Shown one piece after another: positions 2,180 through 30,220 of a stretch of 33,523 nt of DNA (its first letter is position 1; each line of letters starts with the position of its first letter). The position numbers and the translations under genes were made by a program. Source of the DNA: Perkinsus olseni (taxonomy: Eukaryota); NCBI GenBank assembly GCA_013115125.1, contig JABANN010000387.1, positions 1-33,523 of the forward strand, read 5' to 3'. The notes beneath the pieces are model-generated. The model had not been told where the DNA came from. It ran no database searches and was given only the letters and a program-made list of their open reading frames with translations.

Positions 2180-3787
2180 GCAGGTCTGAGTTCTCCGGCA
2201 TCTGCGGTGGCCATTTGCTCATACTTTGAGACCTTTGGAGACATCGAGGCTGTGGATCTGTCGGGGATGTTCAACTCGGAATCGTCGAAGCTCAGCGCTG
2301 TATATATTAAGTGAGTTTATACGAGCTCCGCGGATCGAACCGGGGTCGTTTCGAGGACAGCCGTGGCTTGTGCCGTTAGGACATTTGTCCGCAGATATTT
2401 CGACAGCCGGGCGCCTTTCCTGGCGATGAACCATTTGAAGGGCGTAAGCAGCTTTGCCCCGAAGGTAGTCGCCCTGCCACACATCATCCTGACTCCCTGC
2501 CATCTCCGCTCCAGGTGGTCGAGGTGGACCCGCTGGGAACAGGCAAGCCTGAGACAATCGACATCATTAATGTATCCTTACGAGCTAGCCCTCTCTCTTG
2601 CGAGTCGAGGGGCGAAGTTCACATTACTAATTTACGCTGGAAGGTTGGCGAGACTCTGAGTTGTTGCGAGAAGTTCGGTGACATGTAAGTGTCGCAACTT
2701 CCTCGCTGACCCCCCCCCTCGTTCGAGTTCGATCTCCCGCTCAGTGAATTGATCAACGATCATTCCCCGTCATCCTCCTCGGCCTCAGCGTACGCATTGG
2801 ACTTGGACAGCGTGGCAACAACAGTCACTTTCTACGACAGCCGGGCTGCGGACAATTTTCTAAGGGTACGCGGAGCAACCGGCAGATCTCCCGAGGGTGG
2901 TGGGAATCGCGCGTCTTTAAGGTGCTCCAATCGGTGAAGGACATGCGCCGCGCGTCGTGCAGTTTGGGCGAGGAGAAACCCTCGATAGAATCTACGGTAA
3001 GTGGGAGGGGCCGAGGCTCGAACCTGGGCCTTTCGATTATGGAATACGTATCATATCCGCTAGGACATAGTCGTTCTTATGTTTAGGAGAGGAGAGCTAC
3101 GGTACCCGTGCTGACTTCGGGGATGGTGAAGAGACCTTCAGGTGGGCGGCGACAAGTTGATGACCCAGCGTATTATGCAAATCCGCAGCCTTTTTAGATC
3201 TTGTTGCGAGCATGTCGAGCATTCAGTCAGCAGCATTGCGAGATACTCTCCCGCTGCTGCACCACCCTTCAGAGCTGCAATCCCCGACTACCGAAGGCTT
3301 TACTGTGCAGCAAAGACTAGCAGACCTTTTCCGTCAGTACGACAGTTCGGTACACGCTCCCGCCAGCGACAGCGACTTGGCCGAGTATTCGGGAACTCCG
3401 CGAGACGCTAATAGAGTAACTCCAGCCAATGCCGCTGAGACTCTGGCCGTCATCATCGGTAGTCATCATCAGCGGGCTGCAGCGGGGAGCAGCAACAGTG
3501 CAGCCGCGAAGGAGGCGCGGGGCAAACTGGAAATTTCCCTGGCCGAGAAGGCGGCGTTGATGTGCGACACGGTTAGGGAGTGGGGCAAGCCCTTCAGCCC
3601 GCCCCAACCACCGCAAACGACGGTGGGGGAAGGAGGCCAACGGAGTGAAGATGGGGGCGTTGAGGAAATGCAAGATGTGCAAGTGGAGAAAGTTGGGATC
3701 TCCGCCGAACAAGAGGCTGCAACTGTATCGGATACTCCCGCAGTTGTTTCAGGTCGAACTGAGGAGACTCTCACGAGTGACAAGTGA
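2180..3787 (+). CDS. Mei2-like RRM protein paralog with RRM1 and RRM2 only (multi-exon; 5' end unresolved, probably ~1900-2100)
   Basis: Spliced peptides SYFETFGDIEAVDLSG...AVYIK|YFDSRAPFLAMNHLKG and CCEKFGDI|E...VTFYDSRAADNFLR match Mei2 RRM1/RRM2 patterns (FxxFGDI; FYDxRAA). GT-AG introns include 2311-2394. The last long ORF is 3212-3787. Confidence 0.7.
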
Positions 3788-4117
3788 GTCGACGTGCTTC
3801 GAACTCAAAGATACGTCTCGCACGCGAAAGATTCCGTGGTGTCCCTCAGGTCGCGACGAAGAGGTTCTTTCTGAGAGGATTGGCGCTCAGAGATGGTCAT
3901 CTGTCGATTACCCCATGGTTGCCGGATTGCTTTCGCTTTCGACGCCTTCGCCACGGGGGGTACTTTTCCTTAATGCCGTTAATCCCTCTGGAGGCTTGTA
4001 ATGGCGCGTGTCCTCGTTTTCACAAGCTCGTCGTAGCTTCATCTTTGTCTCACAAGTTGGCGAAATTCAGAGTTGCCGAATGGTGGATTCGAACCGGGCT
4101 CTCCTTAGTGTTACTGC

Positions 4118-6787
4118 ATGGCGTCATCCCCTCGGCCTACAAGCACGTCCGCAGATCGCCAGCAGCAGCAGCAGCAGCAGCAGCGTCCGTCGATTACCTC
4201 TGAGATCAGCGAAAGAGGCGGTGGAACTGAAAATCCCGGCCCAATTCCGCACCGGACTGGCGGTGGAAGCGAGGAAGCGTCTATGGAGGCCCCAAGTCTC
4301 GTCTTCCCGCCATACCTCGCACTAGGTACTGCTACCTCGGAATCTTCGACCCCCCCCCCCCGCAGTGATGACCGATGCTCTCCACAGGTATCGGACGACC
4401 AGTCCCATTAAGCATTCTGGCTATGTACTTCGAATCATTCGGTGAGGCGGATTTTTTGGACTGCACCCGAATGCTCACGGAGTCGTCCGACCCCTACGCT
4501 ATCCGACTAAGGTGACGAAAACAACAACAACAACGCCTGGTTCTACTTCTAACACGGATGTTTGCCAGTTTCTTCGACCGCCGAGTGACCGAGCAAGTTT
4601 ATCAACGTCTGCGAGGGGCCTCAAGTGATGACCCACGGGTAAGAAGATCTTAGCCTTCGATGGAAGGGGTTATCTCCCCCTCGCTTCAGTGCGCCGCAAT
4701 CTCGCGCGCTGGGCGGTCATCACAGCTGGCCGCCGAGTCGGGCGGTGGAGCCCCTATGGAGATTATCGCAATTACTTCCTGTCTAATGGTCGATGCGAGG
4801 TGGGCCCTCCGGCGCTGGATGCACACGGCTCACATGCTTGTCAGGTCGTCAAGACTCCGCGCAGCTGCTGACCCGAGAGTCGTCGATGTAGAACTGCTTT
4901 GCTGGTCTCTGCCGGAAGCAGTTGATTGCTGTTCAGAATTCGGAGCGTTGTAAGTAGAATTGTTGGTCGTGGGATTTGAACTCGGGACCTTCGTCGTCGT
5001 CAGGGCATCGGCCAACGGTAGACCCGTGAGTAGACTAATTATGGAAGCTTCTGAACTTTGCCGAGAGGTTGAATTTCACGACAGTCGTGCGGCTGAGGCG
5101 TTCCGCAACGCAGTGAAAGTTCTTGAAGGAGGAGGAGGAGGAGGAGGAGGAACAGCAGAAAGCTCGAGTTTTCCCGGGAGCCGGGAGGAAGCGCCCCAGC
5201 CGCCGCCGCCACCACCACGACCACCACTAAGAACAGCAGCAGGACCTGCAGGTAGGTCCACTGAGACGATTGTAGCTGTTGGACTGTTGCTTTCAACAGC
5301 GGTTCGAGCTGAGCAGCAACCTCCTGCGACACCCCTTCCTACTATCCCGACGGAACCTTTAATTAGTGCACGTACGGAGCCAGGTGGTGGTGGTGGTGAT
5401 GATCTGCTAACGACGACGGCGGGTGTGTTGCAACAGCAACAGCAACAGCCACCGTCACCTCGTCCAACAACAACGACGCCGTGGGGTGAGTTCACTGAAA
5501 AATGGAGCTTCCTGGGTTTGAACTTGATACCTTCAGGTGAACGGTCGGCGACCACTCCTCCGGCACCAAGATATCTGACCAGCCAGGTTGCGAGATCCCT
5601 GGCCCGGTTTTATCGCGCAGTTGGTGTTAGCGATTACAGAGGAGCTGGTGAGGCCTCTTCAAGAGCTCTTGGGCGATTTCTATCGTCGTCTTACCGGTCT
5701 AGGAGTGCCTTCGTCTGCATCTTCGACTGCGATCCAAGCCGCTGCCCCCTCACCGCGAGCAGCAGCGGCATCCACGTCCCCAGTGGTAACCATCCCGGGA
5801 ATGGAAGAATCTCTGCACATTACGGAAGTTGAAGGCGGGCTTGCAGTAACAACAGTAGCTGACGATTTGTGAAAAGTGTGGTATGGAACATTCCTTTCAG
5901 AACCGTACCACAGTGATGGTTAGGAACATACCGCCAGCGTACACTAGTTCGAGGTTGTTGCAAGAGATTCTAGAGACCCTGTAAGAGTACCATCCGTCGC
6001 CCAACTCATAGCGGAAGTATACCAGTGGTGATACTTTGGTAGGTTGGAGCAAGCGGGCGAGGATGAACTGGCGGCAGTAAACGCTGCCGTCGGAGCGCCC
6101 TTCGGAATAGACTTCGTCTATCTGCCCTTTAATCTTAAGAATAGAGCCGGAGTAAGCAGGCCTCGTCGCAGCAGTCCTTCTCCTCACGTTCTTATCATCA
6201 TCATCAGGTAAGTTACGGTTTCGTAAATTTAACGACTCCTGAAGAATTGCTGATCTTCCACGAGAGATTCAACCAGCATGTTTGGAGATCGGGGACGAGC
6301 AGGGCTCACAATGGTGGAGAGCGAAGACCGTGCGAGATGTCAGCGGCCAGGTTGCAAGGACAACAGGCACTGGTAAGGTCCAACGTGCTAAGTTGATGAC
6401 CGATCGTAATTGTCGCTCGTGCATCAGATTGAAGCATTCGTGAATCGTCTCCATGCTAAGTCGGAGCATATTCCTCTGCAAGCTCGTCCTCTGATTTACG
6501 ATCCTCGGGTGGTCCTATCGGCAGCGTCATCATCGTCATCATCCGCAGCTGCGTTGCCACTACCCACAATACCCCGATCGTTCCATGGGCAACAGCAGCA
6601 GCAGCAACGCTCGCCCACAAGTTATCCCGGATTCTCCCCAGTACCACCTCCTTCTGCGGGGTCGTCCCCTACACGATCAACACCGTCACACCACCATCAC
6701 CATCGTTCTCCGACGCGGCTGTATGGTAGTGGCAGGTCGGCTAGAGGCGCCCCCCCTTCCCAACAGTCGCCACGACCACGCGAATAA
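4118..6787 (+). CDS. mei2: Mei2-like RNA-binding protein (RRM1, RRM2 and C-terminal Mei2 RRM3), multi-exon
   Basis: Spliced product includes MYFESFGE...FFDRR and CCSEFGAL|...VEFHDSRAAEAF. It also has the RRM3 signature NRTTVMVRNIPPAYTSSRLLQEI...IDFVYLPFNLKNRAG|VSYGFVNL...SAARLQGQQAL|IEAF...RPLIY (from 5901). The stop is at 6787. Confidence 0.92.
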
Positions 6788-6924
6788 CGCGAAGTGGAGC
6801 TGGTTCTGTTATCTGTTACCCACTATGATGGCTAGAATCAGATTCCGCAACAGCAAAGACCTCTGCCTCATTCTCGTATCATATGGTCGTTGTTGTTCAA
6901 CTTCATCATCTGCCAACATTCTAT

Positions 6925-7132
6925 GCAGATGATGATGATGATGACAGTTTAATTGTACTATGTTAATGATAATAATTAGGCTATTCCATTCTTATATCCA
7001 AGTGTAGGTTTTTACCCATTGGCCGTCAGTAGGAAGTCACCACACAACAGCAGGTGGCACAAGCTTCTCATCATCATGGGTAGAACGCACCGAGTGTAGA
7101 GGCAGCTGCTGCCAGCTGACGAGGTGGCACCT

Positions 7133-7168
<36 letters not shown>

Positions 7169-7630
7169 GCAGCCTGTATGTCGATGATTATCATTGCCAC
7201 TTCACCGGTCTAGACCCCTTGAGCTGGTGTTGTTGATGGATAATGATGATGACGATGATGATGATGATTTTGTATTGCGAGGTCTTGGTCGCTCATGATG
7301 ATAGAGAGAAAGTTTATCTAATGTTGGGTCGTCGTCGTACTACCCCTACTACTACTACTACTACCATCGGTGCTCATCCTGGTCATGGAAACGACTGCTG
7401 TTTCTGCGGTTATGATTCGGAACTCGCCACCACCACCACCACCATCACTACTACTAATCTGTTGACTGTTGACTGTTGACTGTAGGATGAATACGCAAAT
7501 TTGTAAAAAGTTCATCATTATTATTATTTGTAATACCGCAAGAGTCACCGTGTTGTCTCTTATCAGTGGTCGAACCCACCGCTGCCGCTACCATCACTGC
7601 TACTACTACTATTACTACCATCATCACCAC
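6925..7630. repeat. Microsatellite-rich low-complexity region: (GAT)n, (GCAACA)n, (ACT)n, (ACC)n, (CTGTTGA)3
   Basis: Directly visible tandem repeats. No convincing conserved protein in any frame. Confidence 0.7.
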
Positions 7631-7973
7631 AGTCTGTCCCTTCTTGGACATGCCGCAGTGTTGCTGGTTGTTCTCATAATCCTTGCTTTTCCACTACTTT
7701 TTGTGATACTGGTGAGTCTATCACCACATATCCTCCCTTACCATACACTCCCTTACGCGGTCTGTCTTACGACGTCTGACCTGTTAAAGAAGAGGAGAAA
7801 AGATCATCAACGAGGTTTTGGGTTGTCAATCAATCCACGGCTCCCTCTTGCCTCGAGTGTTAGTGCAGTAGGGGTGTATTCGTAGCAGTTTGTCGATTGT
7901 TAAAGCGTGAGGCATTCTCGTATGCGATTCAGCATGCTCCTCTCAGTTTTCGCCTCTTCCCCCTTTTCAGGGT

Positions 7974-9850
7974 ATGGCTCATTATCAACATCACCGCTCA
8001 TCGTCGTTGTTCTATATAGTAGCCTCTCAGGCTCTCACGGGCTTTGACACGCTCGCTATCGCGAGGAGTTGGCCTCCCGGCGTCCTGGCGCCTGACCTGC
8101 TCAACGCCCAAGCAGCACAGATGGCCGCCGTAACGGGTTCCCCGAACTCAGAGAAGTCAGTACGGGCACCGTCCGAGCCAGCACGCTCGCCTGAGCAACA
8201 GCTGCAACAACAGCAACAGCCGCAGCCATTACAGCGGTCAGAGCCGCCACTACAACAGCTGCAGGAATCAAACTTGCCGCTACAACAGGACCCGTCATTA
8301 TCGCTGCAGTGGGACCCGTCACAGCAACATCCTCAGCAACGACAACAGCAACAGCAGCAACAGGAGCCGTCGCTACAACAACAGCCTCAACATCAGCTGC
8401 AAGATCCGCCAGTAAAACAACCATCACAGCAACCGCTGGAGCCGTTCCTACAACAACCGTACCCACCACAGCCACAACAGCAATGGCTACCACAACGACA
8501 GCAGTTACAACAAGAAGGAGGACAGGCGGGAGAACGATATCCCACCACTGGCGGGATGGGCCCCCCACCCGCTGTAGCACCATCAGTACCGCCCCAGCCA
8601 CTTCAACAGCAGCCCATCCCAACGGCACCTAGTCCCCAGCAGCCTGCTCAGCTACAGCCACTGCTTAGTGCACAGCCATTAGTCAATCCAGCGAATTTTA
8701 ATAATGTAGCGTTACAGCGGAGCGAAGCGGAGGATACGCCGAAACCCGCGGCTGAGAATGATACTCGAGGTGGTGAGTTGTTGTTGTTGACATCGGAAAC
8801 GGATCGAACGGGGTTCTGATTTCAGGTGATAATGAGAAAGCGAAGCTAGCCGGTGCTGGCCGTGGTACCTTCTCTTGGTGGTCTTGGCTGCTGATAGTGA
8901 TACTGATCGCCCTTGCCCTCGGGGGCCTTCTCTATTACACTGACTATATGTATCATAACCAACACTACGGCGGTATGCCGAACAAGGTCCTGGGCCTTGT
9001 TGTCTCCGTCGACCTGCGGACTAAGCTAGACCGCTCCTACTATGTGACGGTGCAGTGCGGCAAAGACGAGGAGACGGTGCTTGAAACCTCAGCACGCGGT
9101 GCCTCTGGGGCCATTCATTGGAACGCTCCCTTCCGCTACAGCCTGAGGCCCGAGAAAGCTCGCGATTTGCCCCTGCGAAAAAGCGTTGTGAAAGTTACTC
9201 TTTACCAGAGCAGCGATGAGGGGGCGAAATCCCTGGGCAGCGGGGAGATCTCCTGCAACAACCTCAAGGACGTCCGAATGACCGGCGGAGCGATGGAGAC
9301 TTTCAACGTGAACATCTCGCGTTTCGGCATGGTGACCGTGAAAGCCGGCCTTGGCTTCAGTGGCTGGTCCGAGCAGAAACTCGACAGACTTCATGCGAGC
9401 TGGCGAAAGAAACGATCGGAAGTGTCCTTCTGGACCAGACTGCTTCTAGCACCAGCAGAGGCAGTGCTGTTGATACTGAAGGGCGTCGAGGGTATCACTC
9501 ACCTTCACAACGTCATTCTCTCCACCTACGACCTCTTCTGCGCTGCCACTATCGCCATGCTCACTCTACCGTTCCTACTCAACTATGTCGGACTGAGCAT
9601 GTTCGACAAGTTGAAGTTCAAGGAACTGCGATGGACGTGGGCTACTTACAGCAGCCTTTCCGGGACGGGTGTCCTGCTCTGGCGAGTCCTAGGCACCTTT
9701 CCTGCCTTCTCCCATCTCGCCCTCTACGGTGGCCTTGGCCTGCTTGCCCTCCTCTTCATGTTGGCTGATTTCCGCGGAGAGTCCGGTTCCGGTGTCGTAT
9801 CTCGGGCAGTTGGTAAGGTCGCTGGCTGGTTCGGTGGGCTGCGTTCTTGA
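7974..9850 (+). CDS. Gln/Pro-rich N-terminus, TM helix, C2-like domain and C-terminal multi-pass membrane region (2 exons; intron 8773-8825; start may be ATG 8121)
   Basis: ORFs 7974-8819 and 8897-9850 join in frame through a GT-AG intron (TRG|GDNEKAK...WWSWLLIVILIALALGG). YYVTVQCG...ETS...IHWNAPF...VKVTLY...LGSGEI resembles a C2 beta-sandwich. Several hydrophobic helices follow. Confidence 0.75.
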
Positions 9851-10169
9851 GAAGCCCCTTTGCTGCACATTATGTCGTACCATGATTCGCGCTGTGCTGT
9901 CCGACGGAAATCGACTTGAGCTCCCTGGGGGTCTTCCGTAGACTGCTGCCTCCTCGAGATTTCAGTAAAGCTTTCACGATTCAATTTAACCTGTAGAAGC
10001 TTGACGAGTCTGAGAGCGCTTAACTTAGAAGAGATCTGCTGCACACCCGGACTTTGTGTGTGTCTTAGTCCAACCTCAATTCCCCAGGCTCTTGCTGATA
10101 TGCACAGTTAGGGACCCGGACTGATTCCGCGCCGCCGCCGCCGCCGACGTCTTCGCCTCAGCCATTACT

Positions 10170-11250
10170 ATGTTTGTTATAATACCCGTATTTGCCCTAT
10201 CGCTCTTGCCAGCCCCTGCCGCCCTTGAAAGAAAGCCTGCCGGTCTGAGCTTTGCTGAACCAGTGGTGACAGAAGTGAAGGCGAAGACCTCACTGTTGCA
10301 GTACGAAGGGTTGTTATCTACTCATTCATTCGCTTGCAACTAAGGTTACAGCCAGTGGCTATGCGCGGGTCTCCTTCTCGCCCCTTTCTGCGCTCAGTCT
10401 AGCTGATAGAACAGTGATGCTTGTGATACATCACCGATCGCCACACAGTTGCAGACGTCGTCAAGTGACTGAAATAGTTTGACTATTCTCGCTTCCCCAT
10501 CTCTCGGGCAGTGACGGCAGTCCTGCGCTTCATCATAGCCGAAACTCTTCCCTTCAGGCACTTCCTCCAGCGCGCCCCGCCACCACCGGACGACGGCACC
10601 TTCGACCCGCGATCGGGTCTGCCCGTTGTCACCACTTCAGAAAAATCAAGCAGGTAAGATTTCCTACTGCACTCGGCCCTCTGTGAGGTGCCTCCTCAGA
10701 GAAAGCCAACCCTCTTTTGTGGCGACGAACGAAGATTCCGATCCAAGGGACGATAGCGTAGGCACCCCCGGGCGTGCGGTTTCCGCCAAGTCCGGATGAC
10801 CTTCAGTTTCCTCATCCACCCTCGGAAATATTTAACTCACCTGATTTGAAGGAGAAGCAGGAGGACGTCGACGCCGATGCAGGAAGGCTGGATGATGAGA
10901 GCACAGTGTTCGCCAAGTACGTCTCCTACCGTTGTTCCTACCTATACTTTTTTCCGATGGTTCACTGGAAAGCTTCTCCTACGTGCCGAATCGATTTTTC
11001 TGTCCTCAGTGACTCGCGCGGTGTCGCCTGGGCCCTCCGGCACTCCGAGATGGATAACGATAGGAAGCAGATGAACAGTATAATAAACCGCAGGATGTAC
11101 CGCGACCCGAAGAGAGCTGCTGAGGGGTGAGCGTCCCCTGCGCTTAAGCTCGTGTAATTACGTTTTGTCGCAGACCGTCATGGGAATAACACCGACGTGT
11201 TGGCTGCTGTCCTATCGCGCCCTTGCCCTTGTGTTGCAATCTCTCAATGG
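10170..11250 (+). CDS. Hypothetical multi-exon protein with a predicted signal peptide (3' end approximate)
   Basis: MFVIIPVFALSLLPAPAA starts at 10170. Several GT-AG introns and the acidic ORF 10774-11130 follow. The exon chain is not fully resolved. Confidence 0.4.
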
Positions 11251-11332
11251 TCGACGAATATTGCACCGATGGTGACTGCTTCGCTATCACAGCAAACCGA
11301 TATATCAGCCGTGAGTGATTGATGGTGAATCA

Positions 11333-11818
11333 TAATAAATTCTTTCATTCTAGTCGACAACTCGTACTAGCTCGACGGCACAGTCCTCGCAGTACTGGCA
11401 ATCTCATCACGAGCCGATCTGTCTTCCTGAGGATGGGGTCCTCCGTGCCACCGCTCCGCCACCTCCGCCGGAGTATTTCGACAGAGCTTTCTTCAACCGT
11501 GCTCCTGATGGGAGCATCGAGTCAGATCTCCAGCTCGTCAGTGGTCTCATCATCGAGCGTAAATAGGAGAATAGACGATTCAGATCAGAACCGATCTTCT
11601 AAACCACCCCTTTTCATAAGATGGCTCCCAAGCCGGAATTCTGCCAACCACTCGGCGATCAGCAACAACTTTGCAATATGGTGATGCCCTCGACTCATAA
11701 TTACTCGGCAGATAACGCTTCCAAATGCCCTCTGGACAATCTTATTTGACAGGGCCGTATCAACGCTAGAAAGCGTCCCCAACTTTGCACGTCGGCGTTG
11801 GACTATAAACTCACGCAT
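11333..11818 (-). pseudogene. Interrupted ORF of unknown function with two in-frame TGA codons
   Basis: ORF 11585-11818 continues in the same frame past TGA (DRF*SESSILLFTLDDETTDELEI*LDAPIRSTVEESSVEILRRRW...) for about 80 more codons. Confidence 0.3.
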
Positions 11819-12251
11819 ACCACTTCAAGGCGAACACTTCCTTCTCTCGGGATACAGTGTGGTGATCGAGCCAACTACTTTCGGTGGATAGCACGGCGAT
11901 GAGAACCTTGGCATCAACACAGATTTCTGGAAATCTGCGAGATCATTAAAACGGTCCAAGGATCCCAGCATTTCTTTGGAGCGGTAACCGAGTCGTCTGG
12001 GATTTTCCTCCGACCTGATGGACGAAATTATTGTTTGAGTCGGTCGAATGTATCACACAGGTGGCCGGTGGCACCGGTGCGTAGCTAAGGAGCAAAACTA
12101 CGACCTTTCCGCGATAAATTCTCGGAGTTTACATTCGCGAGCGTTTGAGTCTGTGAAGGCGGTCCGTACCGAACGACCACTATCTCGGCTAGGTCACAAG
12201 CATGGTGAATCACCATGAATCACCAGGTCACACCATGGCCTCTGAGCTAGA

Positions 12252-17870: not shown

Positions 17871-18049
17871 AGGGGATCATTCGGAATAACAAGTTACTGA
17901 TCCGTGGCACGATCGATCTTAAACGCATAAAAGATCAGAGCACGGCGAAATGACGAGTGATGAGCTTCTTTCTGATGGAGGTTACTGTGGCTGTAGCCGA
18001 CAAATGGTGACGCTGCTAATTTGACGTAAAAGACGCAGTTGGCAATATT

Positions 18050-18725: not shown

Positions 18726-19047
18726 CAGACCGAACTGGGGCGGCCGAAAAAGGGAGGATGGTGATCAAACTGAAGGCCAATCGAAAGGTCCCTGGTTCGA
18801 TCCAACCATCATGCTTCCATTTATGGATTCCATATCGCAAAATATCGAAGGATGCCGATAAAATCAGTGATCGCAGACGTGAAAGGAACTGCCTCATTGG
18901 CCGTCTAATGCTGGTTATCCATCATCGCCGGAATCGGGCAAAACCTCCTCCTCCCTCCCCGCATCCTCAAGGTCGTAGGTTCGATTCCTGGCCGAGGCAA
19001 TTTTATGCACTCAACTCTACACCCCTCACAAGAACACCGTCCATGAA

Positions 19048-20690
19048 TCAACGCCAAGGCGGGAAATACTCCCGTCGCTTTCGTGATGGTAATGCATGAC
19101 ACCAAGGACCCCCTTCACGCGTCACTGCGCCACGAAATTCCTGCCGGGAATCGTGATATTTAGTAGGCACTTGCGGAGTCAGACATGTACGAAGCGGCAA
19201 ATCTTGCAATCTTGCTCGTCCTTTCCGTTCCTCAACTCCCCACGGCTTCAAAAATATGCTGCTACTGCACAGCTCATCCTCAGTAATTTCGTGGCGCGCG
19301 AGAACTTCTGACCGAGTCGCCAACAATCGTTCGATAACGTCAACTTGGTTTTCGATTCTTCTTACACTGTCCTCCAACCACCTCGAGGATATCCTCTCGG
19401 CCCTTCGGAGGAGCCCTGCGACACCGTGACGCCTCCCCGACCCACCCCTCCACTCTGCTGGTGATTTGGGCGGTAATAGCATTTCTACTCGAGAAAAACT
19501 GACGACTCGAATGACTTTTCTCGCGCGCCACAAAATTGGGAAGCCCCAACACCACCTTAATCGCCACAGAAATGTACACCTGTTTTTCAAAGAAAGCATT
19601 CAATTCGCTCAGAGCTGCAGTCCCGGGGAGCCAGCAGGCCCGCAACGGCGGCCGTGGCGAGCATGGCCGAGGAAGAGGACGCCCAGAGAGGTGGAAGGGA
19701 TGGGGGCATGCCGACCGCGAAGTCGAACTCAGGATGGATCTGTCGAAGAGAACGGCAAGGAGTTCTCCCGGAGATAGGTGAGAGAGGTCCCCGGTTCGAT
19801 CCCTGGCGAAGGCATCTCACCCTAGGACCAACATATGGATACTTCGGGCTCCCACCAGGGAGCGCCTGCATGATGCTCGGATCGTCAAAGGGCGAGCTCG
19901 GGCCGGTCAGAGGGTTCGGATACCTGCATACTGAGGATCCAAAGATTCCTGAACCGTCACTGCGCCACGAAATTACCACCCACCGCCTGGCAGCCCCAGT
20001 AGCATCACTCGCTTCGCTGCCTGACACCGATCGAGGTTCGTTTTCACGCGCCATAAAATTATTAGACGAGCGAATTTCGTGGCGCAGTGACTCTATAAAC
20101 CTTCCAGCGGCAAGAACTTCGCGCACAGCCAAGATTCGAAAAGATACGCCTCACCTCTGCTTCCGCTAGATGAGCATACCTCGCCATTCTCTCAGCCATA
20201 CCTGCCAGTTCCAGAGGGGAGGTCGTATGGCGGAGCCTTACAACAGCATAATCCAACCCATTCCGTATCTTGCACGGATCGACCAAAGATGCGTTCCCTA
20301 CTTCTGATGGTCCCATCTTCCCTCGGGCTCGTGATGCCTGAATCGATGCAGCCTGTAGTATCTGCATCCAATAAGTGCATACCACATCATCACCAACTAT
20401 CTTGAGCAAGACGAGCCTCGCCCTAAGAATCTCCCTACGCTCAACCCTCCACATCGAGCTTGCTCTAGGCCCTCCCCACTACCTGTCCCTCGTACTGTGA
20501 TGGTCATGATGATGACGGTGATGGTGATGATGGTGGTGGTGGTGAAGATGATGGGGGTGATGATGATGAAGATGATGGGGGTGATGATGGTGGTGATTCA
20601 GCATCCTCCACAGACGTTCATAGGAGAGAAGGCATTGATGCGGGAGAGAAGCCCTATGAAGTACGCCAAGGGGACAGCATCATGACAAGG
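19048..20690 (-). CDS. Hypothetical multi-exon gene(s); exon chain unresolved
   Basis: Overlapping minus ORFs are separated by GT-AG intron-like gaps. They include a coiled-coil-like segment (RWLEDSVRRIENQVDVIERLLATR) and a His- or Ser/Pro-rich CAT/CAC repeat at 20497-20600. Confidence 0.4.
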
Positions 20691-20780
20691 CTCCGATGAG
20701 CTCACAGAACGACTGGAAAAGTATCTTACAATCCCATAAAATGCAGGCCCAACCTCCAAACTCGAATCAAAAACTGTAAG

Positions 20781-23700
20781 TCAAACGCTCCGTTTTCTCT
20801 TAGGCGATGGACTGGAAGCGTTCTTGGTAATCTTGCAATCTTGCTCTTTCCTAATGCATGCCCTATATCTATGACAACTAACCAAGTGGTCGTTCACGAC
20901 TCCCACTGCCTGCAGCAAGGAGTATACCGTCGTCGGCCCCACCATCCTGCAGTAGACATATATATTTACTACATACTACGAAACGGCTGATCGATTTAAC
21001 TATCTATATCAGTTCACACTCTCCCTCTCCTTGCCCCCAGACACGCCCAACTACAGGAGTGGTAAAGTGAATGCTCAGCAGCCATCCTAATAAGACTGCA
21101 TTCACGACAGAGCAGGGGATGGCAGGGAGCCACTCGGTGATGACTCACGTCAAGACGTGGTCGGCTCAGCCGACTGGCGCCGGTCAGACAATCTCACCCG
21201 AATCGCAGCAGGTCGCTCGAGGCTGGCCCGGGACGAATAAAAAACCACTCGTATCGCTATAGAAGTTACTCCCGTCTCCCTATATCGCTAATTACTCAAT
21301 TTTTGTGAAGAGTAAGTCCCTAAGACCAGCGGAAAGTCTCCTTAAGGTGCGCTACATTTCCACCTTGAGCGGCCCTCGTTCGAACCAAACTCCGGACCCC
21401 TCTATCCTCAGCGCTCAATCGTTGACAGCCTTTATTGCGCTAAGATTCAATTACTTTGCAATAACCGGCAGCAGTACTACCAACGTCAATCACCGGCATT
21501 CCCTCGACGATCATTTTATGCTACCATTACTACCGAAATCCCCTCGCTTTCATATCCTTAGCAACCCTCTCTGACAACTCCGTGTGGGAGGGGATATCAT
21601 CGACGCTCTTCCAAGTGTTGACTATCTGCAACAGCAACCCTTTCCTGCACCGCTCCGCCGCTCCCAAGACATTTCCAAGCCCCCATGTCCACGCATGAAC
21701 CAGCGGTGGTAGAAAATTTATAATACTAATCGAAGTCCTCATCGAAATCATTGTTACCATAATACGCCTCGGGTGGCCGGGTTTGGTGATATATTGTCTC
21801 AAGCAGATGACGGAGGAAACAGAAATACGTATCTAGGCACGCATGCTCCAGTGATTACACCTACCCAGCATAACGTGTTGTACAGTTCACAAAGGCCTAC
21901 GTCATTGCATGCCAACGAAGGCTTCACAAAACATGATCGATCCTCGCAGGAGACCCTCACGCCCTCAATCCGCAGACAGGGAGAAGGTGGACGCTCAGGG
22001 ACGGTCCAAGAATTTCGGGGTTCAGACAGGGTATTGTTTTCGCTGCCATTTTCCTCGTCGTCCAACCCGCCAACAGTGACCACTATTCGAGCGAGATGCC
22101 CTCCAAAAGGCATAATAGCTACCTGCCTTCCCTCTGTGAAGTGCCATATGTACTCACACAAACTGCCGTACCTACCAGTACACCAGCAAGCTGAGGGAAG
22201 AGATCTATTTTAATATCGAGTAGAGCTGGGCAACCGTACTGGGGAACGGGTCGAGGAAAGCACGGTACGGATTGCGTTTCAAAGTGTCAACCTAGTACGG
22301 GTGCGGAGAACTAGTACGTATCAAATATATAAAACAACGCGGTACGCGTATCAAATTACGCCGTACTTCAAGTACGGCGTACTAGTACGGTACTTGGGAA
22401 CCGCTGCGACGGGTAGTATGGCTACGGAGCCGTACTCGTAACCGTACCGTTTTCCGTACTAGACCGTACCCGTTCTGTCGCCCACCTCTACTATTGAGGC
22501 ATAACTAGCCAACCCAGAGATCCACCAGATACTCGGCCATTGGCCCCCCTGTTAGAACAAAATAATCGCCTCCCCACGACGGCATCCAAAGAGAACCGCC
22601 GTGTATACATTCACTTTGGCCGTATCTTTTTGCGCATAACACCTACTACTCTGTTTTATGACACGAGGTACTAAACACGACCCGCACTCAAAGCTCTCAT
22701 TCCCAGTCCTCAGCGTTCTATCCCAGAAATAACAAGATGAAATTTTTTAATATCTGCCCTCCCCCTTCTCGCCATTACTACTCGCCCTGCACCGTCCTCG
22801 CGGCCGCAGCGTTCCTGTACACGCTTTCGATCTTCCTCCTACTCCTCACTACGTCAAAGTCGCCCTCCACGACAGCATCTACAAGCTCATCGATCGAGGT
22901 TGCCTTCGACGCTTGCCGGACCAATGTATCCACGTCGAAGTCATTGAACGCCCTGAACCACACAACCACTTCCCTCTGGACGATATCGCTCGACCGAGAC
23001 ACTCCCCAGTTCCGATGCTATACTACAAAAGAAGCTCGACCAAAGCAAACTTCCATTCGTCACCTCAGTGCGGCGAGGAATGAATATCAGTGATGAGCCA
23101 TCTCTCATGTTCCTCACGAAGTTCTGTGGCGCGCGGTCTCTTTCCGCGCTGTGGTAATTGCGAGAGCTGTAGTGGCTCATGAGGAGTGGCAGCCTGTCCT
23201 GAGTCCGCTATATCGCGACAAACAGCATATTCGTTGAGTTCCCCCATCATACTCATCAACGTGACCGCAATCTGTACCATAAGTTGTTAAGATAAGTCCT
23301 CAAGTTGTTATAATTCGTTCTGATATGAAGTCCTCCAACGGTTCAGACGACCATCTTTTTACTGCTATCATCTATACCCCCCGTCCCCAAACCCCAAGTC
23401 CCCGTGGACACTTCCATACCTTTCCGCATGATGCGAAACGCATCAGACCAGGCATGATTCCACCGACGAAAAATCCGGGGAGGGTCTACAGTTCGACAGC
23501 AGCAGGTGGGTAATCCAGAAGGGTAATTTTACTACTATTCTACCCGCTGAAAGATTCGTTCCCCCAGCAGCCCACCCCCTCCTGGCTACTACTGTTTATA
23601 TCCGCTTCGCTTCGCCAAAATTGTCGCCCAACTCAACCCGGCCTGTGCTCCTTCCAAGCATATCATCTCAAACATATGACGATCATCCGACAGGACGGGA

Positions 23701-24506
23701 AGGCCCCATTCCTCATCATGGTACCTCAAGAAGAAGATTTGGGGGAAATGTTCCACACAACTGACTGTCTGGCTGTATGATTCCACTTGCTAGTCTAGCT
23801 CACGTATTGAAATTACTACTGTAGTTCCAACTCAAGACCCACTGTGGATGACTCCCGCTGAGTCATCCCATCTAACTAAGATTATTATCATGCTCATAGA
23901 AAAGCCGACTTGCCCATTCATCGTGACATTATGAATGGGTGCCAGAGTTCGAGCCATCATCTCCAGTAGAAACCGCAAACCTGTGTTTTTCCAGTTTGGG
24001 GAAGCTCACTCTCTTGCGGATGAAACTAAGATTCCTGAGCTGTTAAGCTCCGAGTATGACAACAAAGATCGTGCATATAACTCCTATCCAGTTGGATTCC
24101 CCATTCGTATTATTTCCTCTGGGTAGGGTAATGCTAGTACTATCAACAACGAGGGGAGGGGCGTTGAATTTAACGACGGTCAAGATGCTTCTACTACAAC
24201 TTACACGATCACTACGATGCGCCCAAGGCGGTTCGACTACCCAACCTAGCTTGGCCGAGGTTCACGTCGAGAATAACTCATTTCATGACAGACAACACTG
24301 TTTTCCAACACAAGCCGGCGGTCAACGACATACATTACTGATCAACGGGGGTTGACCCAACAACCTTCCGATCCGCAGCGCAACGCTCTACCACTACGCC
24401 GCCGTCGCCACGACATCCTGCCCCAATACTACCGCACGTAGTCCTCCTTATTCGCTCCTGTATACCTCCCAGCCCATCCACATCTAGCTACTTCCGAATC
24501 CGACAT
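20781..24506 (-). CDS. tag: DNA-3-methyladenine glycosylase I (TAG family); exons 24506-24433, 23724-23593, 22952-22782, 22171-22123, 21625-21534, 20946-20781
   Basis: The spliced protein has RCGWA...YVRYHDEEWGLP...MFEMICLEGAQAGLSWATILAKR..Y.QAFNDFD...VVRSRRKIESVYRNA...YGSLCEYIWHF...SERVAKDMKARGFRMVGPTTVYSLLQAVGVVNDHLVSC. All Zn ligands (C, H, H, C) are present, and it ends with a basic PKRKR motif. Confidence 0.95.
22221..22490. mobile_element. hAT-like MITE (270 bp) in tag intron 3
   Basis: Imperfect TIRs TAGAGCTGGGCAAC / GTCGCCCACCTCTA. The 8-bp flanks ATATCGAG and CTATTGAG match at 6/8. There are many subterminal CCGTAC/GTACGG repeats. Confidence 0.75.
24346..24410 (-). other. Degenerate tRNA-like sequence (Cys-like) at the start of tag intron 1
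   Basis: The minus strand reads GGCGGCGTAGTGGTAGAGCGTTGCGCTGCGGATCGGAAGGTTGTTGGGTCAACCCCC: an A-box/D-arm, an anticodon-like loop and a decayed T-arm. The paralogous copy at ~27941-28000 reads ...AGTGGTAGAACACTGTGCTGCAGAT. Confidence 0.45.
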
Positions 24507-24855
24507 CCTTCTACCGCTGCGCCCAAGCAACAGGAAGAAGATCTCAAAGCAAACGGGGAAAAAACTGAAAGTGTATCTTCCATGCTTACGACCTTCCCGC
24601 AGAACGACGTCAACGAGCAGGTATGATCCGGAAAACACACTCCCCTCACACTGACCACCGTTACGCTGCTATTGTACAAGCCACGACCAGTAGCGTTCTA
24701 CCAAGCACTTATCAAAAGATGCCCTCAGTCGTCGACCTCACTTGGGAATAGGCAACTAGAGAACAGGTTAGATCGCAAGACACAAACATCATTAACATGT
24801 GGAGAAGGGCATCAACAGAACACGGCGGAAGGCGCAACCAACGGGAGACATCAGA

Positions 24856-25947
24856 CTAACCTGAACCATCGAATGAGCGGCAGTCAATCCGAACCAAAAT
24901 ATTACCTATTTTCTGTATCTTTGCATCAGCCCTCTCATCTATCGACGAGCGTTTCGTCCTGACCAGCTCAGCGGGATTGTGACTTTCCCTTCCTGTAGGT
25001 GCTTCCACCCTGACCACCTCAATCTTCCTCACCTCGTCCGTACCCCAACTGTCCTTATTCAGAACAATCGACAAGGTGTCTTCCGAAGAGGTGGGGCAGA
25101 TCGCAATACGCGAATGATATCCCCCGAGCATCCCAAGCACCTCGTCAACAGTCACGCCTTCGTAATCTCTCCCATCAGACTTGACGCGCAATTGACAACA
25201 ATCCGCTGCATTCAATGCGCGATACATCCGAGAATCCGACCGATACGCGAAGACTTCGAACTTTACATAACTTGAAGAGACCGCCTCTCCATTGTGAGTG
25301 ACTGTGAACTTCACCTCGCCGTGTCTACCGCCGCGCGAGCCTTCAGTTCGGATCACAACTCGAAGCTTGCTCACGCCATTCCCTTGGGAAGAGTCGTTGA
25401 CATAAAGTCCCGGGTAAATCAGCAGTCTCGGAGGAGCCAAATAGTGAGAAGCATCGTTTCTGCGATGGACCTCTACCACCGTCGGCAGCTGCGTACCATA
25501 ATCCTGTTTGTGGAGAACGACCCGCAGCACCGACGCGAAATCCTCCTTTCTCGTTGGCGGGCAAACAGCGATCGTATCCGAGGTCACTTTCCTGAGTTGC
25601 AGCGGCGCTGACTGCCACGCCCATGGCCTGTATCTCAGCTCCCTGCAATTACGACGACTTAGTAAACCGCCTTCTATCACTCTTACGAGTAGGTTGGGTG
25701 GTGTCGTCGTCATATCCCCATCAGCCGACAGGAAACCAAAGCTAGCCAGAAGAATCCTGTTGCTCTTGGAGATCTCCATTGAGACCTCCACCAGGCCATC
25801 AATACCCGTTACATTGCTCCAATAATACCCAACAGGTGGTTTCCAATTGAGGTATGCTCGGTCTGGGCCGACATACCTATGGCTGGACAAGGTGGATGGT
25901 ACGATCAAGAGAAACGGTGACAAGATCTTGGATTGAAGAGCTCCCAT
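24856..25947 (-). CDS. Orphan two-repeat protein, copy A (MGALQSK...); probable 45-nt intron 24861-24905 just before the stop
   Basis: Long ORF and clear paralog of 28603-29661, with similarity starting at this ATG. Internal repeat: TIAVCP..RVVLHKQDYGTQ..VEV / RIAICP..SIVLNKDSWGTD..IEV. Confidence 0.8.
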   Translation of the reverse strand: MGALQSKILSPFLLIVPSTLSSHRYVGPDRAYLNWKPPVGYYWSNVTGIDGLVEVSMEISKSNRILLASFGFLSADGDMTTTPPNLLVRVIEGGLLSRRNCRELRYRPWAWQSAPLQLRKVTSDTIAVCPPTRKEDFASVLRVVLHKQDYGTQLPTVVEVHRRNDASHYLAPPRLLIYPGLYVNDSSQGNGVSKLRVVIRTEGSRGGRHGEVKFTVTHNGEAVSSSYVKFEVFAYRSDSRMYRALNAADCCQLRVKSDGRDYEGVTVDEVLGMLGGYHSRIAICPTSSEDTLSIVLNKDSWGTDEVRKIEVVRVEAPTGRESHNPAELVRTKRSSIDERADAKIQKIGNILVRIDCRSFDGSG

Positions 25948-26679
25948 TTCGTTATTCAAGGAGAGGCTAACAGCGGAGGAAGCACAGTAAGGAAGGAACA
26001 GCAGGAGCAGCAATCGGAGAGGTAAGAATAGGACCAGCGAGGTTCTTCGGAGAAAATGCGTGCAATAAGTGAGATTGTGAATAGACTGTGACAAGATTGA
26101 CACGAAAGATACGCATGAAGCAAGTTAACCTACGGTGTCCACTGGTACGCGTAAGATTCTCTTCTCAACCCTAGTGGTATTCCCAATAAAAGAAACCCTA
26201 TCTTCGCTCGAGCACAGACAGAAAGGTTCGCAGCGCTCCTTCGGGTAGAGCAAGAGCAGCCAGCCGAGAAGACTTCATTTATCATCCGCACCGCAGTTTG
26301 TGACAAATTACAAACACCAAATGACAGTTCAAGATTCACCACAACTTGTATGCCGTTTATAGTACCACATCACCACCAATCACCATCCACGTCTTGTCTG
26401 ATGGAAGGGGAATGGCGGCTTTCTGTCGTATACCAATATTGGGCTGCTCTCCCGCTTCGACTACTCGACGAGGATAGCCCGACGCTCACCTCGAGGAGAT
26501 CTTCATTACTCCACAGTAGACAAGGCCGAATCTAATCGTCGAATGGCGTTCATTCACGACAGTGTCATCACACTGGACAACGGTACACTACGAATTGTAC
26601 CATGAAACATCTTCTGTGTGAAAGGAAGACTCTCCCGCTAAGCTGTGCTAGACTCCTTTGCATACAAAAGAGGGTGAGT

Positions 26680-27785
26680 GACAACTGGTACGCGCTCGAG
26701 TTCGTACAGACTCTATTTGGTACCCCTTTCATCCATACAACAGTATCCCGTACAATTCCAAGTTGAGACTCCCAACCCGTACAGTGGACACTGTCTAACG
26801 ACAGGGTTGGCAAAAACCGGACTAACCGTCGGTGACTACAATGGTCAATGCGACCTGTGGTCGGCTGGACTAACAGCCCTGGTACTGATCGGATGATCAC
26901 ACCTGGCCGGGAGAAAAGAAACCCGTACAGTGATAAGTTGTACATTGACAGTTCGTACAGTTTCCAGTGATACCAGGGTGGCTGAAGGCTGAGGAAGAAT
27001 CATTCTTCCCCTCCCCAATAACTCCCGTTTTAGCTGCCGGGAATAATGGCCGGCGTGGAAGGGCCCCTTCCGAAGGGGACGAATGGACCTCATTTGGGGA
27101 ACTATCATAAAAATCGCCCTTCGCCCACGAAAACCCAAAATCGGACCCGGAAAAGTTTTCCGGGAAAACGCTTAGGAACCCTTCTGGCAGCCCTCTTGTC
27201 CGCTAGACCAGAGAAAATTAGTGTATTCACCTTCGGCCCTGTCATTTTTCATGATTCATCCGTTCGGGGGTGCGCTCATCGAAGAGCGCAAGTACGGGGG
27301 CCCCTAGTATGCCACTCCGCTATCTAGCCTCTTATCATCATCGACACAACCGGTCGGACCGGTGAGGCACGTTTTCATCGTAGCGGAGGCGTTTTATATG
27401 AACATGATAGCAACAAAGGCAGGAGTCGCTCAGAAATGAAGGTTCGTCGATATTTCATACATAATTTGTATAATTCCCGAAAAGGCAGATATTATTCCCC
27501 GAAATAGCTCCTTTCTTCCCTTCCCCGGGCATATTCCCGGGAACAATGGGAATAATTCCTCATTTTCAGCCACCCTGAGTGATACAGTGTTGCTCAGTAC
27601 AGTATTCCCAGATACAGTTTCAAGCCGTACTGTGATAAGTCGTACAGTATCCAGCCGTACAAGCGGCGGTACTCTATTCGGTACCCCTTTGAGCCATACA
27701 AGAGTAGCTCGTGCAGTTTCAAGCCGTACAGTGATAAGTCGTACAGTATCCGGCCGTACACTGACAACCCGTACACGATCCAGTG
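26680..27785. repeat. CGTACAG-rich repetitive element with internal direct repeats, interrupted by a hAT MITE
   Basis: GTTTCAAGCCGTACWGTGATAAGTCGTACAGTATCCRGCCGTACA at 27617-27661 and 27716-27760. CTCTATTYGGTACCCCTTT..CCATACAA at ~26711 and ~27672. Confidence 0.7.
26974..27577. mobile_element. hAT-like MITE (604 bp) with perfect TIRs and TSD
   Basis: 13-bp perfect TIR CAGGGTGGCTGAA / TTCAGCCACCCTG. Perfect 8-bp TSD AGTGATAC at 26966-26973 and 27578-27585. Subterminal TTCCC/GGGAA repeats and no transposase. Confidence 0.92.
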
Positions 27786-28024
27786 GTAAACGCTTTACCT
27801 GTATGACACATTCTGTACAGCCGCCTCCTCGCGCGTATCGCGGTAATTTTCTACAGGAGTTATTTCGAAGGCAATGACGCCTTAGAAGCCACTCGAGAAT
27901 AAATTCGCTGCCCAAACCAACTCACCTGCCGAGCTTACAGGACCGATTCGACGAATCGCCAATCTGCAGCACAGTGTTCTACCACTACGCCGTAGTAGCC
28001 ACAATTTTCACCCCGTATTACTAC

Positions 28025-28108
28025 CGAACACATTGCCCCTTCTTCGCTTCCATATGATATGGTTGTATCATATAAGCGCAGTCCATCCACATGTAGCCGC
28101 TTTCCGAA
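28025..28108 (-). pseudogene. Dead duplicate of tag exon 1
   Basis: The minus strand reads AATCGWTALI* and then ...GQCVR|GTAGTA. It aligns to tag exon 1 (VARCGWAG...EDYVR|GTAGTA) but has lost the ATG and gained an insertion and a stop. Confidence 0.7.
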
Positions 28109-28602
28109 AGTCAAAAGTCACTTTCGCATTAAACATTCCGCTGCTGTTGAAAATTCAAGGGAGATCTCAAAGCAAATAGCAATCCTGCAAGTGGATCGAT
28201 CTCAACTCAATCACCAGTGAGACCGTCTTCTTGGACAGTTTGTTCTCAGTTGAACAGAACACATGCCCTTCCGCCACAGTGTGGGGTGAGGACGTAAGTG
28301 CTCGAGTTCTGGGGCCCACACCCGCCGGACCAAGGGCTTCGACAGTGGCGCCGTAGAAGCCGCTGCACGCGGCGTCACGCTGCCAGCGTTCTTCCAAGCA
28401 CTTATCACGAGAGGCTCTCAAGTTGAAAGCCTCAACCTTCCAAGCAGGAAGTTCCGACCCACTTGGGGTTAGGCAACTATAGAGCAGGTTTGGTTCTAAG
28501 ACACGTACATCATCAACATGAGGGCACAGGATAAAACACAGCGAGAGGCTACACCGACGCTCCTATGACGTTTAACAAGCAGCCCCCTCCCAAGACATCA
28601 GA

Positions 28603-29661
28603 CTAACCTGAACCATCGAATGAGAGGCAGTCAACCCGAACCAAAATATTACCTATCTTCTGTATCTTTGCATCAGCCCTCTCATCTATCGACGAGCGTT
28701 TCGTCCTGACCAGCTCAGCGGGATTGTGACTTTCCCTTCCTGTTGGTGCTTCCACCCTGACCACCTCAATCGTCCTTACCTCGTCCGTACCCCAACTGTC
28801 CTTATTCAGAACAATCGACAAGGTGTCTTCCGAAGAGGTGGGGCAGATGGCAATACTCGGACGATATCCCCCGAGCATCCCAAGCACCTCATCAACAGTC
28901 GCGAAGTCGACACCATTATCACCACCTGGTTCGGCATGCACTTTGCAGCAATCTGCTACATTCAGTGCGCGAAATAGCGCGTAATTTTTCCGATACGGGA
29001 AAACCTCAAACTTAACAAAGCTGGAAGATCTCACTTCTCCATTCTGAATAACAGTGAGTTTCACTTTGCCTTGTCTCCTGCCGCGGGAACCCTCAGTTCG
29101 GACATCAACTTGAAGCCCGCTCACGCCACCCAGTCGGAGAGAGTCGTTGACGTAAGTTCCCGGGTAGATTAACCGTCGCAAAGGAGCCAAGCCTTTGGGA
29201 ACATCATTCTCCCGACGAACTTCTACTACCGTTGGCAGCTGCGTACCATAATCTTGTTTGTGAAGAACGATCCGGTAAGGCGGTCTGTCCACTTTCCTTC
29301 TTGACGGGCAAACAGCGATCGTATTAGAAGTTACTTTCCCGAGTACCACCAACGGGGACTTCCAGACCCACGGTCTGTGTCTCAGCTCCCAGCAAGTATC
29401 CCTACTTAGTGGACCATCTACTCTCACTCGTACCAGCTCGTTAAGCGGAGTCGTCATCGTCCTCCCATCTCCCGATAGGAAGCCAAAGCTAACCTGAGTA
29501 CAGTTGTTGCTGTCCTGCACAACATCCATCGACAGCTCCGCAAGGCCTTGGACGCCCGTCATATTGCTCCTATAAAACCCAACGGCTGGTTTCAAGCCGC
29601 CACTATAGACCGGTACGATCAGGTGGGCGAGTGGTAACACCTTGGACGGAAGGGTCCCCAT
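28603..29661 (-). CDS. Orphan two-repeat protein, copy B (MGTLPSK...); probable 45-nt intron 28608-28652
   Basis: Long ORF and paralog of copy A, with a nearly identical C-terminal ~85 codons. Confidence 0.8.
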   Translation of the reverse strand: MGTLPSKVLPLAHLIVPVYSGGLKPAVGFYRSNMTGVQGLAELSMDVVQDSNNCTQVSFGFLSGDGRTMTTPLNELVRVRVDGPLSRDTCWELRHRPWVWKSPLVVLGKVTSNTIAVCPSRRKVDRPPYRIVLHKQDYGTQLPTVVEVRRENDVPKGLAPLRRLIYPGTYVNDSLRLGGVSGLQVDVRTEGSRGRRQGKVKLTVIQNGEVRSSSFVKFEVFPYRKNYALFRALNVADCCKVHAEPGGDNGVDFATVDEVLGMLGGYRPSIAICPTSSEDTLSIVLNKDSWGTDEVRTIEVVRVEAPTGRESHNPAELVRTKRSSIDERADAKIQKIGNILVRVDCLSFDGSG

Positions 29662-30220
29662 CTTAGTATTCTCGGGCGAAAACCCAGGAGAAGGAAGCAA
29701 ACACTGTAGAAGTGAGGGAACTGCGAACAACTCCGCGAAAATTATCCAAAGTATGTTGGCGAGAAAACGGAAGGGGAAAATACTGCTAAGTGAGCAGAGA
29801 AGGATTGATAATGCTGCCGCTATTTTGAGGCCTCGACCTTCTCTTTGACAATCAGCTGAAGACGAACCCGCAAGCGAATATTTCGGCATGGAGTGGTATG
29901 ACTGCCGAGAAAGTGTCACGGCAAATTCAACCGCCCAACCAAGTATTGGGTTCGTAAGGAAGATTTTAATCATGGATTGACTAAGACAAGGGCGACTAGA
30001 AGATACGCACAGGTCAACCTACAATGTCCCCTGATAGACGAAAGATTCTCTCCCCAACCACCCACACAAGATTTCCAACAACACAAAACAACCACTGTCT
30101 CCATCACTAGCACACGCAGAAAGAAACGGAGCGCTCCTTCCGGCGGCGAGCACAGTCGACCTGGTACATACTACAAATCTTGCAATCTTGCATTTTCTCA
30201 ACGTTCCTCTGTACCTTCTA

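Follow-up and report, generated by a model that had tools for sequence, protein, structure and literature searches.

The recognition of ultra-short introns and the origin of new introns are both open questions, and a stretch of nuclear DNA from Perkinsus olseni (Perkinsozoa, Alveolata), which parasitises shellfish, raises the two of them together. The stretch (assembly GCA_013115125.1, contig JABANN010000387.1, positions 1 to 33,523), referred to here as the window, is 33.5 kb long. It carries seven copies of a two-part sequence motif, several of them inside very short introns. What is this motif, and what could it do there? The analysis showed that it is a real, non-random, strand-specific, intronic element of P. 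olseni. Our favoured reading, which is held tentatively, is that the element is a single-stranded binding platform in the pre-mRNA that helps to define ultra-short introns. A near-invariant, 26-nucleotide (nt) sense word present in 4 of the 15 confirmed introns would provide a handle on both of the intron questions.

The element and its spliced host introns

The consensus consists of half-site 1, (C/A)GTTGAGGAA, a spacer of 2-12 nt, and half-site 2, GCAAGAT(T/A)GCAAG. The core of the motif spans ~26 nt, and the two half-sites together form a nearly invariant word of 23 nt. Half-site 2 is composed of two GCAAG units located 8 nt apart, and this pair of 8-bp-phased repeats contains the palindrome TTGCAA. 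It is followed by TGR in four copies and by ATT in the other three, where the ATT ending gives two complete GCAAGATT units. A G-run block (GGGGG/GGGGAGTT) a few bases upstream is common to three copies. The seven copies are as follows.

3658-3683, plus strand: imperfect copy; CGTTGAGGAA, spacer at, GCAAGATGTGCAAG, with a 1-nt insertion in the second half
16444-16470, minus strand: CGTTGAGGAA, spacer atga, GCAAGATTGCAAG; inside intron 16435-16490; position-weight score 41.6
16986-17010, minus strand: CGTTGAGGAA, spacer tt, GCAAGATAGCAAG (1 mismatch)
17153-17177, minus strand: CGTTGAGGAA, spacer tt, GCAAGATTGCAAG
19203-19237, minus strand: AGTTGAGGAA, 12-nt spacer cggaaaggacga, GCAAGATTGCAAG
20832-20856, minus strand: partial copy; degenerate half-site 1 CATTAGGAAA, exact half-site 2; position-weight score 25.7
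30179-30203, minus strand: CGTTGAGAAA, spacer at, GCAAGATTGCAAG

The half-sites were counted separately and compared with shuffled sequence. The 13-mer GCAAGATTGCAAG gave seven matches at up to two mismatches, against 0.96 expected, and the 10-mer CGTTGAGGAA gave eight matches at up to one mismatch, against 2.22 expected; neither count was reached in any of 100 shuffles. Six of the 13-mer matches lie on the minus strand (16444, 16986 with one mismatch, 17153, 19203, 20832 and 30179). The seventh, at 6346(+), carries two mismatches, lacks the first half and is unrelated. Similarly, six of the eight 10-mer matches sit 2-12 nt upstream of half-site 2 on the same strand, and the remaining two, 5101(-) and 12438(-), are solitary. 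The indel-free bipartite pattern was found five times in the window and in none of 200 first-order Markov simulations, and two looser copies, 3658(+) and 20832(-), were found in addition. These counts and simulations confirmed the seven copies listed by the first-pass annotation, whose coordinates were correct overall, except that the copy at 19203 extends to 19237 and not to 19236. A position-weight scan recovered all seven together with three weak extras at 22824, 24005 and 28176, all of them on the minus strand within the minus-gene block, that is, in sense orientation; ten simulated windows yielded one comparable match in total.

RNA contigs of four runs from four studies (X7, X8, X10 and X19) were aligned to positions 10600-30500. 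One run (X19) is on record as RNA, two, X7 among them, are guessed to be RNA, and one is of undefined kind. Of 39 joints, 15 were displayed, and all of these are minus-strand GT..AG joints located between 15.7 and 30.2 kb; no displayed joint falls at 19203 or 20832, which is no evidence either way. The following four of the 15 displayed confirmed introns bear the motif.

16435-16490, minus strand: motif intron of 56 nt, GT-AG; joint 16433>16490 in X7 and X8
16961-17017, minus strand: motif intron of 57 nt, GT-AG; joint 16959>17017 in four of four runs, including X19
17129-17180, minus strand: motif intron of 52 nt, GT-AG; joint 17126>17179 in four of four runs
30161-30214, minus strand: motif intron of 54 nt, GT-AG; joint 30158>30213 in X7 only (RNA label guessed)

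Short GT-AG introns that are removed from RNA do, therefore, host the motif. The first-pass annotation had described five copies as filling much of a 50-75 nt intron; four of these introns are spliced in the RNA contigs (52-57 nt), while the fifth (19170-19243, 74 nt) is a candidate only.

The motif begins 20 nt past the 5' splice site and stops 9 nt ahead of the AG in intron 16435-16490; the corresponding distances are 7 and 25 nt in intron 16961-17017, and 3 and 24 nt in intron 17129-17180. Across the four confirmed introns, it starts 3-20 nt after the 5' splice site, occupies 25-27 of the 52-57 nt and ends 9-25 nt before the AG. The last range narrows to 18-25 nt if a second AG, located in frame 9 nt downstream of the acceptor of intron 16435-16490 (16425-16434), is counted. 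The joint 16433>16490 was not seen in X10 or X19, where the contig pieces stop at 16425. Given this end point and the AG 9 nt downstream, X10 and X19 probably use the downstream in-frame acceptor, unlike X7 and X8.

Three of the motif introns belong to the gene at 15.3-18.8 kb, which has 13 introns among the displayed joints, 12 of them of 42-59 nt and one of 144 nt. The fourth, 30161-30214, is the last intron of a minus-strand transcript and lies ~60 nt before a poly(A)-like end, a loose contig end of 25 T at 30100. A TGA is located just upstream of this intron, in the sole frame that closes the exon. Judging from the stop codon and the poly(A)-like end, the intron is probably within the 3' untranslated region.

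The other three copies have less direct hosts. The copy at 19203 precedes the first exon with RNA support in the 15.3-18.8 kb gene, sits within the candidate 74-nt GT..AG intron 19170-19243, and is flanked on both sides by an inverted pair of a second motif (19127/19287). The copy at 20832 is located in a candidate 109-nt GT..AG intron (20774-20882) downstream of the exons of a Tag-like glycosylase gene. The copy at 3658 is found in a plus-strand Mei2-like gene, within a 227-nt segment (3623-3849) that is skipped by public gene models, and the reading frame 3164-3784 is open across it.

The motif introns also differ from their neighbours in composition. In post hoc comparisons based on small numbers, the four were longer than nine other short introns (54.8 vs 48.9 nt, p=0.04), had a higher purine fraction than the 11 others (0.60-0.66 vs 0.39-0.57, p=0.005) and contained fewer pyrimidines ahead of the 3' splice site (p=0.025). 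The purine fraction of their non-motif parts was 0.56-0.62.

Secondary structure beyond that of shuffles was not detected in any of the four motif introns (z = 0.05, 0.06, 0.48 and -0.51; 51-131 of 200 shuffles fold equally well), and the folding test revealed no terminal inverted repeats or end-joining hairpin in them. A hairpin or mirtron was ruled out by this absence of structure. A separate observation concerns 16538-16588(-), a 51-nt spliced intron without the motif, which forms a strong hairpin (-17.3 kcal/mol, z = -4.25, 0 of 200 shuffles as good); the other eight introns that were folded gave no hairpin of this kind.

Mode of action and origin

An RNA-binding site is expected on the sense strand of RNA that is spliced out, with constraint on its contact sites and not on the linker or flanks. 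Sense location in spliced-out RNA was observed for the four host introns, and all seven copies are in sense orientation relative to the enclosing or nearest gene. The minus-strand joints and the plus-strand Mei2-like gene, which holds the sole plus-strand copy (3658), thus bear out the earlier statement that every copy is on the sense strand. The alignment of the seven copies with their flanks had a mean column identity of 49% and 15 invariant columns, every one of which lies inside the half-sites. The spacers (tt, tt, at, at, atga, aga and a 12-mer) and both flanks were unrelated between copies, and the variable spacer and unrelated flanks noted from the sequence alone were thereby upheld. 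Conserved half-sites with free spacer and flanks fit a constraint on two contact sites joined by a flexible linker. As no secondary structure was detected, the element would be exposed as a single strand. Its end, 18-25 nt before the 3' splice site that is used, would place it just upstream of the expected branch site. Together, half-site conservation, the lack of structure and the uniform sense orientation lean towards a selected, single-stranded element at the RNA level.

A mechanism along these lines can be proposed. The element, being Perkinsus-specific, strand-specific, two-part and linear, would act in the pre-mRNA, where it would lie downstream of the 5' splice site and ahead of the presumed branch region in the 52-57 nt GT-AG introns. 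A sequence-specific RNA-binding (splicing) factor would bind the half-sites as a single strand, and the bound factor would help the spliceosome to recognise purine-rich short introns that are without a good pyrimidine tract. The element would, in this capacity, be an intronic splicing enhancer that may also supply the minimum distance from the 5' splice site to the branch.

Several points weigh against this proposal. The evidence comes from a single window, and 11 of the 15 displayed confirmed introns are without the motif, which is therefore not generally required for splicing. Three of the seven copies (3658, 19203 and 20832) lie only in candidate or annotated introns, and the one at 3658 may be coding, since its frame stays open. 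The composition comparisons are post hoc, set 4 introns against 11, and involve some circularity, the motif being purine-rich in its own right. The seven copies are also not seven independent trials, because the window holds only one plus-strand and one minus-strand gene block; motif orientation is inseparable here from gene-block or replication direction.

This last point bears on a different explanation, in which a DNA-binding protein with several domains, for example a tandem-AP2 protein, recognises the motif as an oriented site in double-stranded DNA. Such a site would be situated in non-coding DNA, which consists mainly of introns in this compact genome, and its orientation would be tied to that of transcription or replication. 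Within the window, the motif, the transcripts and the sign of the GC skew all change direction together; as the orientation follows the two gene blocks and the skew sign, a DNA-strand rule fits equally well. The 8-bp-phased repeats of half-site 2 with their TTGCAA are a common layout for tandem DNA-binding domains, and for the copies at 19203 and 30179, the next gene downstream has its first RNA-supported exon ~100-450 nt away. Moreover, the window holds a second motif family, TTTCGTGGCGC, whose copies point both ways and which is clearly a DNA element in its behaviour. Three copies of the present motif, however, are located 1.6-2.3 kb inside a gene, in internal introns, and transcription-factor sites are seldom confined to the sense strand. 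A spacer that ranges from 2 to 12 nt also breaks the helical phasing of the halves. We consider a DNA site unlikely.

The main competitor of the pre-mRNA platform concerns origin rather than function. The motif may be what is left of a tiny insertion, or the core of one, that was mobile or copied from a template and that makes or enters introns. It could be a mini introner, or it could come from the 3' end of a retroposon truncated at its 5' side, the tail being the 8-nt repeat GCAAGATT in two units. The likeness among copies would then reflect common descent or recent templated copying, and not function. Several features of the host introns point in this direction. The exon context is AG|G in 4/4 motif introns vs 1/11 others (Fisher p=0.0037), and border microhomology amounts to 3-5 nt, against 0-5 nt (mean 2.2) in the 11 others (p=0.07). 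Without the motif, 27-32 nt of each intron would remain, although no confirmed intron is shorter than 42 nt; this makes it improbable that the motif arrived later in an intron that already worked, and an origin of the motif together with the intron is possible. The upstream G-run in three copies looks as though 5' truncation points differ, and three copies end in two full GCAAGATT units. Loose contig ends fall exactly at motif borders at 16986 (X7 and X8) and 17147 (X19), which suggests that further loci share the motif and its 5' side; other loose ends are found at 18540, 19974/5, 20090, 20980 and 30306. Other dispersed motifs are also present in other introns of the same gene.

The likeness, nonetheless, stops sharply after ~26 nt. 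The introns are unlike over their full length, and the near-identity along the whole intron that is expected of an introner was not found in the seven-copy alignment, which covers the window only. From copy to copy the spacer mostly changes and the half-sites do not, which argues for selection rather than youth. Neither terminal inverted repeats nor a hairpin is present, and a scan of 117 of the 194 open reading frames (ORFs) revealed neither a reverse transcriptase nor a transposase. All seven copies are sense, whereas mobile elements usually land both ways. A classic introner is unsupported, because the introns are unlike over their length and are without terminal inverted repeats; the relic explanation as a whole is possible but doubtful. 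The first-pass annotation had offered a splicing or RNA-level element, a DNA site and an introner core side by side. Its factual premises stood, and it is the RNA-level element that we favour, the introner in its classic form having found no support.

Binding in the pre-mRNA and descent from an insertion are compatible, as a cassette could be copied and then retained for its function. A fuller version of this combination appears improbable. It posits an undescribed class of minimal introns (~52-57 nt) built on a 26-nt cassette that moves or is copied and that also serves as the platform which a dedicated RNA-binding factor recognises. If true, no smaller introner-like system would be known, and this one would have a trans-acting reader of its own. 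Seven copies per 33.5 kb would correspond to thousands genome-wide if the window is typical. The motif predicts a specific reader protein and would serve as a marker for intron gain and loss among Perkinsus species.

The two arms could, alternatively, pair with a small RNA. Under this explanation, the motif is the pairing target or a mimic of the spliced-leader (SL) RNA, a small nuclear RNA (snRNA) or a small regulatory RNA, and the spacer forms a loop; two arms with a free spacer match the expectation for two adjacent helices. The published 22-nt leader of Perkinsus marinus, PmaSL1 (PMC3101222), was used for comparison. The reverse complement of the motif aligned to PmaSL1 better than 97% of shuffles (score 8.0, p ~0.03), a post hoc and marginal result. 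The duplex energy with the leader, on the other hand, was average (-10.9 vs -10.8 +/- 2.8 kcal/mol for 5000 shuffles, 45% of which were as good). Complementarity to the spliced leader, which had been suggested from the sequence, was rejected since this energy matches the average of the shuffles. Rfam scans revealed no gene for an snRNA or another small RNA in the window: the gathering scan of the whole window gave no match, and an E-value scan of 16300-17400 gave one weak, unrelated match. A known RNA family was ruled out by the same scans. We give pairing with a small RNA a very low probability.

Neighbouring genes and other repeated words

The window comprises one plus-strand and one minus-strand gene block. 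The former contains the Mei2-like RNA-binding-protein gene (~2183-6784), followed by a C2-domain gene that extends to ~11.6 kb; the minus-strand block runs from ~12 kb onward. Of the clean, exon-like ORFs, the longest, 8777-9847(+), shares 94% identity with a P. olseni protein annotated as hypothetical and partial. A search with ORF 3164-3784 returned four relatives, three of them named (two P. olseni proteins and a P. chesapeaki orthologue), and a protein search with ORF 21802-22209(-) gave no match. The Pfam scan, which covered 117 of 194 stop-to-stop ORFs of at least 70 amino acids, produced only two matches, both sub-threshold.

The public gene models of the contig look faulty. One of them treats introns 16538-16588 and 16435-16490, both supported by RNA, as coding sequence, continues in a shifted frame and joins the Tag-like glycosylase gene to the one that follows (15300-23732). 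Another fuses the Mei2-like and C2-domain genes (2183-11563), and downstream of 3625 the public models are mutually inconsistent. Since gene models read through a motif-bearing intron, recognising the motif would improve the annotation of this parasite.

The second motif, (A)ATTTCGTGGCGC(G), gave 20 matches at up to two mismatches, against 8.9 expected, in both orientations. Its sites include 16670, 18617, 19127/19287, 19525, 19962/20075, 20048 and 31597/31653. Three inverted pairs, 56-160 nt apart, have their GCGC ends facing outward, and one of them contains a 19-nt perfect inverted repeat. A single copy is located inside the spliced intron 16652-16699. The second-motif sites are also places where RNA contigs are interrupted or turn back on themselves. 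The motif may be a promoter palindrome or may mark the ends of a small foldback element; its GGCGCG core resembles E2F sites.

Words of the B-box or transfer RNA (tRNA) T-arm type, GGTTCGAWYC, were found six times, against 0.28 expected, and no tRNA gene was predicted in the window. Their positions are listed below.

2332, minus strand: GGTTCGAWYC site
4086, minus strand: GGTTCGAWYC site
17316, minus strand: GGTTCGAWYC site
18794, plus strand: GGTTCGAWYC site
18978, plus strand: GGTTCGAWYC site
19793, plus strand: GGTTCGAWYC site

The spliced intron 17291-17342 contains one of the words, with a T-run after it, and three lie in the 1-kb region upstream of the 15.3-18.8 kb gene. They may be fragments of tRNA-derived repeats or extra TFIIIC-type sites.

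Two tandem, diverged paralogues occupy 24368-26170 and 27959-30059 on the minus strand. Their ORFs encode 422 and 471 amino acids, share 72-96% DNA identity in blocks and belong to no Pfam family. The duplication ends before intron 30161-30214 and is therefore uninformative on the gain or loss of that intron. The minus-gene block also contains repeat arrays with a 15-nt period (CGTACAG-type units) at 26710-26975 and 27585-27790, probably a five-residue protein repeat. Long CAG/CAA (polyglutamine) and GAT/GGT runs are present in coding regions at 4150-8510 and 20490-20600, and RNA contigs are cut at some of them.

Relation to known systems

Literature searches on Perkinsus introns, motifs, introners, the spliced leader, promoters and genomes returned no description of the motif, nor any account of introners or conserved intron motifs in Perkinsus, with the supplements of introner surveys, which might list Perkinsus, standing outside the scope of this search. 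No paper was found for the literal motif strings either, and the motif appears to be undescribed so far. A scan of 241 million metagenome records returned three loci with the full motif, all of which were dismissed as chance matches: two are near-identical, AT-rich and, from their translation, read as bacterial coding DNA, and the third has unrelated flanks.

Introners are the closest comparison as far as distribution is concerned. Those of Micromonas, Aureococcus, Amoebophrya and fungi resemble the element in being a repeated, lineage-specific sequence in many spliced introns, with AG|G-type sites and possibly short border repeats. Fungal introners can form stable hairpins. Many introners carry inverted and direct terminal repeats, and invasive intronic elements are found in Amoebophrya, an alveolate relative (PMC7789003). 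In the same source, introners are alike over their whole length; here, only ~26 of 52-57 nt are common, the ends are unrelated and no structure is present.

Spliced-leader relicts are a second comparison. The P. olseni genome has spliced-leader trans-splicing and many introns, and short leader-derived relicts, often in tandem, are scattered through Perkinsus genomic DNA (PMC3101222). The relict leaders of dinoflagellates and Perkinsus differ from the element in that they are sense copies of the leader at the 5' ends of genes, while the motif is weakly leader-like in antisense only and lies in internal introns.

Expression signals borne by introns are alike in being orientation-dependent, intron-resident, non-coding and dispensable for splicing as such. 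They include the words of plant intron-mediated enhancement and the periodic A/T clusters of Caenorhabditis elegans introns. These signals are short and degenerate, and are found near promoters or gene-wide, whereas the present element is a long, exact word in mid-gene and 3'-terminal introns.

Intronic splicing enhancers are bound by RNA-binding proteins and include G-runs, GCAUG-type sites and purine-rich SR-protein sites, all of them degenerate and of 4-8 nt. The element resembles them in that it is short, sense-only, unstructured, present in some introns and often tandem, and its GAGGAA is purine-rich like SR-protein sites. It differs from these degenerate 4-8 nt sites in being a near-invariant, two-part word of 23 nt that makes up half of the intron.

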